A stretch of 32,000 bases of DNA, taken from positions 660,001 to 692,000 of the forward strand of contig OZ252021.1 in NCBI GenBank assembly GCA_965247685.1. Reading direction: 5' to 3'. The translations under genes and the position numbers were made by a program. Source of the DNA: Bdellovibrionales bacterium. Its GTDB lineage: Bacteria; Bdellovibrionota; Bdellovibrionia; Bdellovibrionales; UBA1609. The notes under the pieces were generated by a model. It had not been told where the DNA came from. It worked only from the letters and a program-made list of their open reading frames with translations, and made no database searches. Positions 19,326 to 23,996 of this stretch are shown in pieces (the first letter of the stretch is position 1; each line of letters opens with the position of its first letter).

Positions 19326-21282
19326 GAATATGAGTGAATTAACTCGAACGGATAAAGAAGTAAAAAATCTTGCTCGAAAAATTTATTTAGCTCGATATAT
19401 TGTGGCTATTTTTTTTCTCATTATCACAAGTCGTTTATGGTATTTACAAATCGTCAAAGGTCCACACCTTCGGATGTATTCTGAAAATAACTATCTTAAA
19501 AAACAGAAAGTGGTTGCTCCTAGAGGTGTTTTTTTAAGTCGTAATAATAAGGTTTTAGCCTCTAATCAATTGCAGTTAGAACTTCAACTGACACCCCAAT
19601 ATTCTGCGGATATTCAAAAAGTATCCCAAGAAATAGCTCCTATTATTAAAATACCTAGTGAACGATTGGAAAAAAATATTATAGAAAGTAAAAAATATAA
19701 TGGCTTATTTTATCCCGTAACTTTGAAAAAACAACTGAGCATTAACCAAGTTTTTAAACTGAAAAGGCTGAGAGAGTTTTATCCAGAGATTAATATTAAC
19801 GAGTACATCATCCGTTTTTATCCTCTAGGTGAAAGGGCTTTTCATGTATTAGGCTACATGGGTGAAGTGTCTAAACAGCAATTAAAAAAATGGAATTATT
19901 TATTTGATGAAGCATTTTATTTTAAATCTGGTGATGTTATTGGGCAAAATGGAATTGAACAGATTTGGGAAAGAAACGTGAGGGGACATGATGGAGTTAA
20001 TTTTATTGAAGTGGATGCCTACTCTCGGCACATTTTACATCCATCCAAGAAATATTTATGGAACTTGAAGCCGCAAAAATATATACCAGGACATCACTTA
20101 GTTTTAACCATAGATGAGGATATACAAAACGCAGCCTTTAAAGCTATGAATAGAAAAGATGCTATTGGTCCTCGAAATGGAGCGGTAGTGGTGATGAAAA
20201 CTAATGGAGAGATTTTAGCTTTAGTGAGTTCTCCAAGTTATGATCCCAATAAATTTTCTGCTGTGTTATCTAGTGAATCTTGGAAGGAAATTAGAAAACA
20301 ACCATCCAAACTTTTGTTGAATAAAGCAATTCAAAATCATTATCCCCCAGGATCTATTATAAAACCCTTTGTCACTTTTGCTGCTCTACAAGAGGGTTTA
20401 TTAAAACCAGACACTTTAATAAATTCTCCGTCTAGAATTCGTGTGGGAAGAAGAATCTTTCACGATCATAAGCAAACAGGGTATGGAGAGATTAACCTTT
20501 TTCAAGCCATTGAAGAATCTTCAAATACATTTTTTTATCAAATAGGCCGGCAACTTGGAATGGATAAAATGGCAAGTTACTTTAAACTTTTTGGGCTTGG
20601 AGAAAAAACAAAAATAAAACTTCCAGGAGAGATATTTGGATTTATTCCCACATCCAGATGGAAAGAAAAAACATTCAATAAGAAATGGCAAAAGGGAGAA
20701 GATTTAGTTCATGCTATAGGGCAAGGTTATATATTAGTGACGCCATTACAAGTTGCAATTGCATTTAACGCCATAGCTACAAAGGGTAAGATTGTTCGAC
20801 CTTTTTTAGTGAGAAGAATTGTTAATTCCAAGGATGAAGTTGTCAAAGAGTTTGTAGAAAAACGAACGAATGATTTAAGTGAGTATATTGATACTCAGCA
20901 TTTTGAAACAGTTCAAAAAGCCCTCACTCAAGTTGTACATGGTCCAAAAGGTACAGCTCGATGGTGGAAGGTGAAGGGTTATAAAATGGCAGGTAAAACA
21001 GGGACGAGCCAAGTTCACTCTTTTAAAAAAGGTGAAGTTTATAAAGATTGTCGTCAAAAAGAAATTCAAAGAAGGAATCATGGGTGGTTTGTAGCTTTTG
21101 CTCCAGTAGAAAAACCTGAGATTGTGGTTTCTGTTTTAACAGAACACTCTTGTTTTGGATCGAGTGGATCGGCTCCTGTGGCAAGAGATATTATACGGGC
21201 CTATTTGAAAAAATATTCACAAGCTCCTCGTTTATCTACAGTTCAACAGAAATTAAAAATTCAACCTTTAGAGAGAAGCTGA
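19315..21282 (+). CDS. mrdA: Penicillin-binding protein 2 (elongasome transpeptidase)
   Basis: 655 aa with an N-terminal TM. Motifs SxxK (PGSIIKPF), SxN (EESSNTFFY) and KTGT (AGKTGTSQV). Located between mreD and rodA. Confidence 0.93.
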   Translation: MFFKNMSELTRTDKEVKNLARKIYLARYIVAIFFLIITSRLWYLQIVKGPHLRMYSENNYLKKQKVVAPRGVFLSRNNKVLASNQLQLELQLTPQYSADIQKVSQEIAPIIKIPSERLEKNIIESKKYNGLFYPVTLKKQLSINQVFKLKRLREFYPEININEYIIRFYPLGERAFHVLGYMGEVSKQQLKKWNYLFDEAFYFKSGDVIGQNGIEQIWERNVRGHDGVNFIEVDAYSRHILHPSKKYLWNLKPQKYIPGHHLVLTIDEDIQNAAFKAMNRKDAIGPRNGAVVVMKTNGEILALVSSPSYDPNKFSAVLSSESWKEIRKQPSKLLLNKAIQNHYPPGSIIKPFVTFAALQEGLLKPDTLINSPSRIRVGRRIFHDHKQTGYGEINLFQAIEESSNTFFYQIGRQLGMDKMASYFKLFGLGEKTKIKLPGEIFGFIPTSRWKEKTFNKKWQKGEDLVHAIGQGYILVTPLQVAIAFNAIATKGKIVRPFLVRRIVNSKDEVVKEFVEKRTNDLSEYIDTQHFETVQKALTQVVHGPKGTARWWKVKGYKMAGKTGTSQVHSFKKGEVYKDCRQKEIQRRNHGWFVAFAPVEKPEIVVSVLTEHSCFGSSGSAPVARDIIRAYLKKYSQAPRLSTVQQKLKIQPLERS

Positions 21283-22454: not shown

Positions 22455-23663
22455 ATGAATATTATTACACATCTTCTTTTGTTGCTTGCCTGCTCTCGTT
22501 TTTTAGGCCGTTTATTTAAGTCTATTGGTTTTTCACCTATTATAGGTGAGGTGCTGGCAGGTCTTCTCTTAAGTCCTACTGTCTTTAATGTTGTTTCTCC
22601 CTCTAAAGAACTCAACGGTATTATTGAACTAGGTATTTTTCTTATGATTTTTGCAGCTGGGCTTGAAATGGACTTACAAGATATATTTGGAGCCATGAGA
22701 AAAAAAGCTGTACTCTGCGCTTTAGTAGGATGTCTTTTCTCTTTTTGTTCAGGGTTAGGTATTGGATATATCTGGGATTTATCTTTATTTTCTTCATTCA
22801 TACTGAGTTTATGCTTTTCTATAACAGCTCTTCCCATAGTGATTCGCTTCATGAATAATTTTAAATTTATGGATACAGCTATAGGTCATACTGTGATGGG
22901 TTCCGCAGTTATTTTAGATGTATTAGTTTTATTATTTTTAGGTGTAATTTTAAATATTCAAAATGTGAGTAACTATTTGGAAGTGTTTCGAATAGTGAGT
23001 TCAAAAATGATAGGAATGGTTTTGTTTTTTATCATTGTTATGCTCGTAAATAAATTTTTAAGATCAGAGCTTTTAAGTATGCCCCAGTCACAAAATTTGA
23101 TTAAAAAATTTATGAGTTATCTAGGGGAAGAAGCTTTTTTTGGTATAGGAGTGGCATTTGTTTTAATATTTAGTACAACGACAGAAGCTTTAGGTTTTCA
23201 TTTTATTATAGGAGCTTTTTTTGGAGGGCTATTGCTCAATAAAGATGTGATCGGAGTGAATGCTTTCAAGTCTATGAGTAGAACGCTTCATGCTATTACA
23301 GATCATTTTTTAACTCCCATATTTTTTGCATCTATTGGTCTTTATTTTTCTATTGAAGCTTTTGAACAGCCGTGGATGCTTTTATCCATCATGGGAGTTG
23401 CTTATCTATCAAAAATAGTAGGTTCTGGAATAGGAGCTCGTTGGGCAGGTTTTAATTTTATAGAGTCTTGGAAGGTAGGTATTGCTTTAAATTCAAGGGG
23501 CATTTTAGACTTAATTGTGGCTGAAATTGCCTTTTCTAGAGGGTATGTTGATTCTAAAATATTTTCTATTTTGATTTGTACAAGTTTAGCCAGTTTTATC
23601 ATTAACCCTGTTTTATTTAGGCAGTTGATTCGTAAAAAAGATGGTGCCCAAGGCCAGACTTGA
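22455..23663 (+). CDS. Cation:proton antiporter (CPA/Kef-NapA-like Na+/H+ exchanger family)
   Basis: 402 aa with about 11-12 TM segments. Typical N-terminus LLLLLACSRFLGRLFKSIGFSPIIGEVLAGLLLSPTVF. The last 22 nt overlap the 3' end of the antisense tRNA-Leu gene. Confidence 0.8.
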   Translation: MNIITHLLLLLACSRFLGRLFKSIGFSPIIGEVLAGLLLSPTVFNVVSPSKELNGIIELGIFLMIFAAGLEMDLQDIFGAMRKKAVLCALVGCLFSFCSGLGIGYIWDLSLFSSFILSLCFSITALPIVIRFMNNFKFMDTAIGHTVMGSAVILDVLVLLFLGVILNIQNVSNYLEVFRIVSSKMIGMVLFFIIVMLVNKFLRSELLSMPQSQNLIKKFMSYLGEEAFFGIGVAFVLIFSTTTEALGFHFIIGAFFGGLLLNKDVIGVNAFKSMSRTLHAITDHFLTPIFFASIGLYFSIEAFEQPWMLLSIMGVAYLSKIVGSGIGARWAGFNFIESWKVGIALNSRGILDLIVAEIAFSRGYVDSKIFSILICTSLASFIINPVLFRQLIRKKDGAQGQT

Positions 23664-23953
23664 ACTGGCACGGCTCTTACAAGCCCCAGGATTTTCATAC
23701 TCGCTACAGTTTTCACTGCTCCCTATAGAAGAGGATTTGGAGTCTGGACTCTGCCTTCACCATAGTTGAACCTTAAGTGCTATCCGTCGAGTCTCTACAC
23801 CTTCAATCTCTCTTTGATATCAGAGAGACAGCTTGGCTCGGCGTTGCCATCTTACAGGTTTCGCCGAATTTGAACAGTTCTACTCAGTTAGTTTCCCTAT
23901 ACTGGCACTCAATTCTTTAAGTCCTGTGCGTCTACCAATTCCGCCACTCGGGC
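23642..23953 (-). tRNA. trnL: tRNA-Leu(UAA), split gene: exon 1 at 23953-23919 (35 nt), group I intron at 23918-23696, exon 2 at 23695-23642 (54 nt, CCA encoded)
   Basis: The joined exons give an 89-nt class II cloverleaf. Acceptor stem GCCCGAG/CTTGGGC (one G-U); D arm TGGCGGAATTGGTAGACGC; anticodon stem CAGGA/TCCTG with loop CTTAAAA; variable arm GGCT-TGTAAG-AGCC; T arm GCCAG-TTCAAGT-CTGGC; A73 and CCA. Confidence 0.9.
23696..23918 (-). ncRNA. Group I intron (223 nt, no ORF) inserted between U34 and A35 of tRNA-Leu(UAA)
   Basis: Starts AAAGAATTGAGTGCC and ends GCGAGTATG (terminal G). P1 can form as exon ACUU with intron GAGU, giving a U-G wobble at the splice site. Core blocks: GGCAACGCCGAGCCAAGC, GAAGGTGTAGAGACTCGACGG, GGCAGAGTCCAGACTCC. 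P7 candidate GACTC/GAGTC. Hairpins CAGTATAG-GGAAA-CTAACTG, TCTCTCT-N8-AGAGAGA and CAGT-GAAA-ACTG. Confidence 0.85.
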
Positions 23954-23967
23954 ACGCATCTTCGTCC

Positions 23968-23996
23968 ATGCTAAGTCTTTTTTAGTGAAATTTCAA
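23968..23996 (-). promoter_or_regulatory. Candidate sigma-70-type promoter for the split tRNA-Leu gene
   Basis: The minus strand reads TTGAAA-17 nt-TAGCAT, with the -10 ending 14 nt upstream of tRNA position 1. This is a pattern match only. Confidence 0.35.

Follow-up and report, generated by a model that had tools for sequence, protein, structure and literature searches.

The split tRNA-Leu(UAA) gene

On the minus strand of a 32-kb stretch of DNA from a Bdellovibrionales bacterium (contig OZ252021.1, positions 660,001 to 692,000; this whole stretch is called the window here and supplies the coordinates used below) lies a gene for a leucine transfer RNA that is divided into two exons. Exon 1 (23919..23953, minus strand, 35 nt) encodes the 5' strand of the acceptor stem, the D arm, the 5' strand of the anticodon stem and C32-U33-U34, and direct reading from 23953 to 23919 gives GCCCGAGTGGCGGAATTGGTAGACGCACAGGACTT. 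Exon 2 (23642..23695, minus strand, 54 nt) continues with A35-A36, the 3' strand of the anticodon stem, a long variable arm, the T arm, the 3' strand of the acceptor stem, A73 and an encoded CCA, and reads AAAATCCTGGGGCTTGTAAGAGCCGTGCCAGTTCAAGTCTGGCCTTGGGCACCA from 23695 to 23642. The 223 nt between them (23696..23918, minus strand) start with AAAGAATTGAGT, have GTATG as their last five letters and were identified as a group I intron of the IC3 type, devoid of an open reading frame (ORF), with the Rfam model RF00028, with the intron mode of ARAGORN (-i) and by covariation. We consider it very likely that this locus is the tRNA-Leu(UAA) gene on the chromosome of a Bdellovibrionota-like bacterium, in which a 223-nt group I intron of the IC3 type without ORF separates U34 from A35.

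From the joined exons ARAGORN predicts a clean 89-nt tRNA-Leu(taa) with perfect cloverleaf, long variable arm and encoded CCA, and on the unspliced DNA its intron mode finds the split gene and places the 223-nt intron between GACTT and AAAAT. The model RF00028 (Intron_gpI; gathering score 50) matches 23928..23719 on the minus strand over its full length (model positions 1-253) with 53.1 bits and E = 1.1e-12 if a 600-nt region is searched. An earlier inspection of the bare letters (here called the sequence-only reading) had drawn exactly these boundaries and exon and intron sequences, had expected a complete tRNA-Leu(UAA) from the joined exons and had proposed the searches with RF00028 and with ARAGORN in intron mode that now give these results. 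Its description of the intron as ORF-less also holds, as an ORF scan inside the 223 nt found nothing longer than 50 aa; the ORF of 104 aa that overlies the tRNA at 23402-23716 is a shadow. A run at the Rfam gathering threshold with fast filters over the whole 32-kb window gave no match, which is due to the filters, and ARAGORN without intron mode did not call the split gene in the window. Ordinary annotation would therefore miss this gene and leave the genome without tRNA-Leu(UAA), and this would distort estimates of the tRNA complement and of completeness for such metagenome-assembled genomes (MAGs).

A promoter-like site (TTGAAA-17 nt-TAGCAT; 23968..23996, minus strand) found by a consensus scan ends about 14 nt before the first nucleotide of the tRNA. 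With the sequence TTGAAA-17-TAGTAT it recurs upstream of the orthologue in one of the related assemblies described below (L001), and its match to the consensus and its conservation suggest that it may act as promoter. The GC content amounts to 44.8% in the intron and to 33.9% in the window. Among the flanking genes are mreC, mrdA, rodA, a CPA2 antiporter gene, murI, an M14 peptidase gene, dapD and a gene for a TonB-dependent receptor, in line with the ordinary chromosomal context of an AT-rich diderm that the sequence-only reading had assumed. We call the host Bdellovibrionota-like because the named homologues of DapD are from Bdellovibrionales, Bdellovibrionaceae and Oligoflexia MAGs. The ORF of the CPA2 antiporter (22455-23663, plus strand) covers the last 22 nt of the tRNA gene on the opposite strand (23642-23663). 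The same is seen in L246 and is absent from L001, and the final antiporter codons over the tRNA are probably read-through to the first stop and no real overlap.

Fold of the intron and its constraint

The structure of the intron was drawn by hand by analogy with the Azoarcus IC3 ribozyme and every drawn pair is a standard one in the window sequence. It was projected onto an alignment of 103 distinct related introns that were chosen with a terminal G (alignment A1), and as control the 3' partners were slid by 1-3 columns. In A1 89.8% of the cells are paired versus 29-44% in the slid controls, both sides vary in 36 of 55 pairs, and none of 500 shuffles equals any of the observed measures. Helices P3, P4, P5, P6, P7, P8 and P9b are paired in 98.8-100% of the cells and covary, so that the foldable P3-P9 core anticipated by the sequence-only reading is indeed present. 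The pattern used for the genome scan described below did not contain P3, P5-P9 or P7 pairs.

All elements of the fold lie on the minus strand, with intron position i corresponding to window coordinate 23919 minus i. P1 (23907..23922) is formed by exon ACUU and intron A1-A2 with intron U7-U12 (UUGAGU). Exon ACUU stands opposite intron GAGU and the splice-site pair is a wobble between U34 (position -1) and G9; in A1 it is U·G in 94/103 and C-G in 9/103 introns, while the adjacent pairs are invariant. The P2 hairpin (23885..23904; intron 15-34) has a GGAAA loop, and in A1 all seven pairs covary, with 72% of cells paired in this length-variable and imperfectly aligned region. P3 unites CUGUUC (23872..23877; intron 42-47) with GGAUAG (23780..23785; intron 134-139) and is paired in 100% of the A1 cells, five of its six pairs varying on both sides. 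The P4-P5-P6 domain (23799..23867), also backed by covariation in A1, comprises P4 (23862-23867/23838-23843; intron 52-57 / 76-81; 99.5% paired), the short hairpin P5 (23847-23858; intron 61-62 / 71-72; 100% paired) and P6 (23835-23837/23799-23801; intron 82-84 / 118-120; 99.7% paired). The short P6 hairpin TCTCTCT-N8-AGAGAGA pointed out by the sequence-only reading is found as P6a (23804-23831; intron 88-115), although its length is not kept among the orthologues.

In the guanosine-binding helix P7 the 5' strand, G-(bulged A)-GACUC (23789..23795; intron 124 and 126-130), pairs with the 3' strand GAGUCC (23746..23751; intron 168-173), which is preceded by J8/7. It is paired in 99.6% of the A1 cells and the bulged A125 is invariant. 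The additional P7 pair 130:168 is of Watson-Crick type in 103/103 introns (A:U in 72, U:A in 24, C:G in 4, G:C in 3), and its C:G form is private to the clade of the window. The P8 hairpin (CACU ... GGUG; 23758..23779; intron 140-143 / 158-161) is 98.8% paired with covariation in all four pairs. The last region (23699..23743) contains P9 (ACUC/GAGU; intron 176-179 / 217-220; 70% paired in A1) and P9a (intron 186-200; 52% paired), both less well aligned, and P9b with a GAAA tetraloop (intron 201-204 / 209-212; 99.3% paired, 4/4 pairs covarying). The 3' splice site follows the terminal guanosine (omega-G) at 23696, intron position 223. Thus both the U·G wobble in P1 and the terminal G, already noticed in the letters, are in place.

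A second alignment (A2) comprises five split syntenic genes, namely that of the window and those of four related assemblies (L001, L002, L003 and L247). Here 97.3% of the cells are paired and compensatory double changes occur in nine pairs, located in P2, P3 (two), P5, P8 (two), P9b, the tRNA D stem and the variable arm encoded in exon 2; the positions of exon 1 are invariant or compensated across the five orthologues. Since pairing is kept with compensatory changes even though five flanking proteins show just 59-82% identity between the genomes with the split gene, the tRNA and the ribozyme are under purifying selection. Covariation demonstrates both the fold of this intron and the selective constraint on it.

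Class and predicted splicing

The intron belongs to group I (RF00028) according to its score above the gathering value, P1 with U·G at position -1, omega-G, a core of P3-P4-P6 and P7-P8, the P3/P7 pseudoknot and a bulged nucleotide in P7. Subclass IC3 is indicated by the length of 223 nt, the site in the anticodon loop, the lack of P5abc, the GAAA-looped P9b and the core blocks, which are identical to those of the Azoarcus IC3 intron; the subclass was assigned by alignment to known IC3 members. The split CUU/intron/AAAA with U at -1 and G at omega places it in the class Leu.3Ug.

How splicing would proceed can be deduced from what is established for other members of the family, the pre-tRNA introns of Azoarcus and Anabaena. 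The putative promoter just upstream would drive transcription of the precursor, in which the intron would fold into the P1-P9 ribozyme. Exogenous guanosine bound in P7 would attack the phosphate after U34, i.e. after the U of the P1 wobble, and the terminal G223 would next occupy the guanosine site of P7, with ligation of the exons to a normal 89-nt tRNA. The intron is probably a functional self-splicing IC3 ribozyme.

Orthologues with and without the intron

The order rodA-antiporter, trnL, hypothetical gene-murI-dapD is common to six related assemblies. Also mrdA is present at these loci, except for L004, where the locus begins within rodA. Four of the six relatives (L001, L002, L003 and L247) have a tRNA-Leu(UAA) gene split at the same spot by introns of 206, 220, 231 and 236 nt, and in the two others (L004, i.e. 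GCA_028819545.1, and L246) the same locus holds an uninterrupted tRNA-Leu(UAA) gene with near-identical exons. Among close relatives there has thus been at least one gain or loss of the intron, and its presence and absence at one locus provide a clean natural pair of alleles. The host tree comprises three sub-lineages: the group of the window with intron, L004 and L246 without it, and L247 with intron. As this tree lacks an outgroup and cannot be rooted, a single loss explains the distribution as parsimoniously as a single gain.

The five introns of this clade are monophyletic and their divergence (78-92% identity in core columns) parallels that of the host proteins (59-82%). The sequences fit vertical descent of the intron since the common ancestor of both intron-bearing sub-lineages. 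In a metagenome scan with the clade-specific 19-mer CAGAGTCCAGACTCCAAAT five matches were obtained, all of them by chance and without intron or tRNA. At L004 an insertion with a Fic-domain gene and a gene for an HTH regulator separates the antiporter gene from the 3' end of the tRNA-Leu(UAA) gene (L004:2197-3299). Both genes are absent from the other six loci and may constitute a small island integrated at a tRNA gene.

Distribution outside cyanobacteria

One genome per species (GTDB) was scanned with a pattern consisting of the end of exon 1 (AGAC-N6-GACTY), the P1 3' strand TTGAG and the P4 block CAAAYTCGGNGAA, written on purpose to leave out the cyanobacterial 'CAG' form. At least 120 non-cyanobacterial species genomes match. 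Among the matches listed, ARAGORN -i recognises 99 leucine genes split at a site of the U34/A35 type, 90 of them tRNA-Leu(taa) with U-1/omega-G and nine tRNA-Leu(caa) with C-1/omega-G. Judged from record titles, the hosts of the matches listed include Alpha-, Beta- and Gammaproteobacteria, Acidobacteriota, Eremiobacterota and Binatia, besides Bacteroidota (Phaeodactylibacter luteus, P. xiamenensis, Saprospiraceae), Chloroflexota (Caldilineaceae) and Planctomycetota (Tepidisphaeraceae). Cultured proteobacterial hosts among them are Bordetella tumbae, Sphingomonas yantingensis DSM 27244, Bradyrhizobium spp., Achromobacter spp., Steroidobacter flavus, Carnimonas nigrificans, Stutzerimonas nosocomialis, Sphingobium cupriresistens and Caulobacter sp. 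A published catalogue (Williams 2020, bioRxiv 10.1101/2020.01.27.920355) comprises 5292 tRNA genes split by group I introns from about 80,000 bacterial genomes; it counts Leu.3Ug among the classical classes and gives 72 proteobacterial introns for Leu.3Cg. The rarity outside cyanobacteria supposed by the sequence-only reading cannot be maintained in view of these numbers; of the three options that it had left (ancient retention, horizontal transfer or a wider distribution than appreciated) the last one is correct.

The nine Leu(CAA) loci (L128, L137, L138, L158, L198, L219, L225, L238 and L242) have C at -1 and a splice-site C-G pair in place of U·G. Their P7 is compensated (GAGAGC/GCUCC), and they agree with Leu.3Cg, an untested class of that catalogue.

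No title of a Bdellovibrionota genome is among the scan matches listed, and a literature search for group I introns together with Bdellovibrio yielded nothing relevant, so a Bdellovibrionota-like host may be unreported for this intron type. The intron is a new addition to a known family of tRNA-Leu(UAA/CAA) introns that is widespread across many non-cyanobacterial phyla, and the type of element is not new. With it a Bdellovibrionota-like lineage joins the known hosts of these familiar ribozymes, and the reasons to record it are the blind spot of annotation and the occurrence of alleles with and without the intron at one locus.

Mobile relatives

The viral contigs of IMG/VR yielded at least 120 matches to a generic pattern of the IC3 core. 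Among the matches listed, about 20 contigs have their tRNA-Leu(UAA) gene interrupted at this very position, and in many cases the gene belongs to a phage tRNA array. At the putative viral loci L048:4934-5231, L058:6005-6287, L060:5362-5657 and L066:6571-6863 the gene is split as CTT/...G/AAAA, and about 15 more loci are alike (including L025, L033, L037, L081, L094, L102, L118, L120 and L124); the introns are of IC3 type with 190-216 nt. Split Arg, Pro, Lys, Asn, Ser and other tRNA genes were called on IMG/VR contigs as well. According to a 2014 review (PMC3984707) the phage introns then known were all located in protein-coding genes, despite the many tRNA genes of phages. Four phage genes (L026, L074, L092 and L105) are called 'tRNA-Tyr(ata)' by ARAGORN -i, but with a splice site moved upstream by two bases the arrangement GACTTAT/GAAAATTGAG...G/AAAATC agrees with tRNA-Leu(UAA), and from these letters they are likely to be miscalled members of Leu.3Ug.

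BLASTN with the split gene of the window matches the huge uncultured phages LR756511, LR756501 and LR756503. In LR756511.1, a huge phage of 595 kb, the tRNA-Leu(UAA) intron (L253:2999-3785) measures 700 nt, and its P6 contains a sense-strand ORF of 154 aa for an HNH endonuclease (Pfam HNH/HNH_3). Six bacterial tRNA-Leu introns of 678-698 nt (L149, L152, L173, L181, L216 and L233), found by the genome scan in MAGs of Gammaproteobacteria and Acidobacteriota, contain a homologous HNH ORF in antisense orientation. The HNH ORFs may encode homing endonucleases that act on trnL(UAA) alleles without intron, and their presence in phage and bacterial relatives indicates that a homing-competent form of the tRNA-Leu intron family exists. 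The P6a hairpin of the window intron stands where these relatives hold the HNH ORF, and the window intron may be an ORF-less descendant of such a form.

BLASTN also revealed four conjugative plasmids of Bradyrhizobium, and every one of them has a split tRNA-Leu(UAA) gene that lacks annotation. In the plasmid of Bradyrhizobium sp. ISRA435 (CP094621.1; L254:2995-3285) and its three sisters, plasmids of 317 kb, the IC3 intron has 204 nt and trb genes adjoin. The gene table of PLSDB, which omits RNA genes, lists nothing at the position of this split tRNA gene. In Pelagibacter phage HTVC120P (MH598807.1, ~19616-19806; L255:2465-2655) the capsid gene is annotated as two coding sequences, gp29 and gp30. 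The gap of about 190 nt between them aligns to the IC3 core (CAAATTCGGTGAA ... GAGCCAAG ... AAGGTGTAGAGACT ... AGTCCAGAC ... GTGAAAAC) and looks like an unannotated group I intron.

This intron type is present in the genomes of at least 120 non-cyanobacterial species, on plasmids, in phage tRNA arrays and, together with HNH, in a huge phage. Its distribution bears on a long-standing debate, in which the trnL intron of plastids is seen either as an ancient trait of cyanobacteria or as belonging to a mobile family. The presence of the family with HNH genes on phages and plasmids is a more interesting lead than the window intron alone.

Alternative explanations

Several points weigh against our interpretation of the locus. 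The RF00028 score barely exceeds the cut-off (53.1 versus 50) and the match is lost under the default filters of Rfam; A1 was collected with patterns in which parts of P1 and P4 were preset, so that the columns concerned are not independent evidence; and P2, P9 and P9a are weaker in A1 (52-72% paired), probably because length-variable hairpins align poorly. The score near the threshold could also be taken as a sign that the intron is a decayed, non-splicing relic in a dead gene copy, with decoding left to another tRNA-Leu gene. We regard this as very unlikely: the core helices, the splice-site U·G and the terminal G are all intact, the promoter-like site is conserved, and 97.3% pairing with nine compensatory pairs is kept among orthologues whose flanking proteins are 59-82% identical. 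The region could likewise consist of cyanobacterial or plastid DNA, brought in by a chimera of assembly or binning or by very recent transfer of a trnL intron, and the insertion site, the intron subclass and the GC content of the intron above that of the window would agree with this. Yet the split gene is found in the same synteny in five independent assemblies, its exons match the intron-free orthologues L004 and L246, and a raised GC content is normal for structured RNA of AT-rich genomes. Core identity was computed over 203 columns with a single sequence on the cyanobacterial side (Sel1 of Williams' seed). It amounts to 78-92% for the syntenic orthologues, 70-75% for alphaproteobacterial Leu introns and 65-68% for Ile, Arg and Thr introns. 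With Sel1, which is presumably from Synechococcus elongatus, it is 60.5% and thus lower than with the Azoarcus tRNA-Ile intron (65.7%) and with proteobacterial Leu introns. The signatures GTAGAGAC and GTCCAGAC of the window, the T of the former being invariant across A1, stand where Sel1 has GCAGAGAC and GTCCAATT; plastid introns read GCAGAGAC as well, in the target of plant primer h. A cyanobacterial or plastid source of the region is extremely improbable, and chimera or plastid contamination as such, which the sequence-only reading had named as a circumstance that would overturn it, is ruled out by the shared synteny in five assemblies together with the low identity to the cyanobacterial reference.

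With the interruption of a resident tRNA-Leu(UAA) gene by an IC3 intron as the preferred reading, its origin has to be considered. Horizontal gain, possibly repeated, through homing or recombination from phage or plasmid tRNA-Leu genes with HNH introns and later loss of the ORF is suggested by the presence/absence polymorphism at one locus, by family members in phage tRNA arrays, in the huge phage LR756511.1 (HNH in P6) and on Bradyrhizobium conjugative plasmids, and by the six bacterial introns of about 690 nt with HNH ORF. The alternative is ancient retention, and monophyly of the five clade introns with divergence that tracks the host proteins fits vertical descent, while the unrootable host tree makes one loss as parsimonious as one gain. 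A neighbour-joining tree puts the clade beside AT-rich phage-borne introns, but this closeness may be an artefact of base composition and, with such a short alignment, we do not trust the placement. Horizontal gain is thus a tentative explanation to which we give somewhat less than even chances. The most far-reaching proposal would be that the tRNA-Leu(UAA) IC3 intron is a pan-bacterial and still mobile element of phage and plasmid tRNA-Leu genes, driven by versions with HNH in P6, with the Bdellovibrionota copy as ORF-less descendant and the cyanobacterial/plastid intron as one branch, so that this intron type would be no cyanobacterial heirloom; as a whole it seems rather unlikely to us at present.

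Comparison with known introns

The cyanobacterial trnL intron (Anabaena and Synechococcus pre-tRNA-Leu), known from reports of 1990 including Kuhsel et al. 1990 (as cited in PMC3984707), resembles the window intron in host gene, U34/A35 site, IC3 architecture, small size, lack of an ORF, U·G splice-site pair and terminal G. In contrast, J6/7-P7 reads GUAGAGAC in the window and GCAGAGAC in the cyanobacterial seed, the P4 strand UUCGGCG versus CUCAGGG, and the start of P9 GUCCAGAC versus GUCCAAUU; GUCCAGAC is found in most of A1, several members having GUCCAGG or GUCCGG. The host of the window intron is, unlike that of the cyanobacterial one, a Bdellovibrionota-like heterotroph. From the label 'cyanobacterial/plastid-type' given by the sequence-only reading, the insertion site and the IC3 subclass can be retained, whereas the implied sequence affinity cannot (60.5% to Sel1 versus 70-75%). 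With one cyanobacterial sequence compared, these values point against a specific affinity of the window intron to cyanobacterial introns. The intron is no anomaly and not specifically cyanobacterial.

With the class Leu.3Ug (Williams 2020) the window intron aligns end to end, both with the seed Ncf2 and with the 99 genome matches, and shares CUU/a...g/AAAA. Differences are the compensated P7 pair (C:G) and the P9 stem ACUC/GAGU that the window clade has on its own. The Agrobacterium-type intron of tRNA-Arg(CCU) (Arg.5Ug) has an IC3 core and the P9-P9a-P9b layout of the window intron, but it interrupts another tRNA at another position of the loop, and the core identity is 65.3%.

The IC3 intron in tRNA-Ile(CAU) of Azoarcus sp. 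BH72 has the J3/4-P4 and P4'-P6 blocks AAAUUCGGCGAAACC and GGCAACGCCGAGCCAAG letter-identical to the window, so the blocks that the sequence-only reading had matched to conserved plastid sequences, among them sites of plant barcoding primers, belong to the generic IC3 core. Both introns also have GAAGGUGUAGAGACU, AGUCCAG and the GAAA tetraloop of P9. The Azoarcus intron differs in its host gene, its position in the loop (Ile2.5Ug) and its shorter P9, with a core identity of 65.7%. Crystal and cryo-EM structures of it are available (PMC3984707, PMC13168695) and, by analogy, it is the best structural model for the way in which the ribozyme of the window would work.

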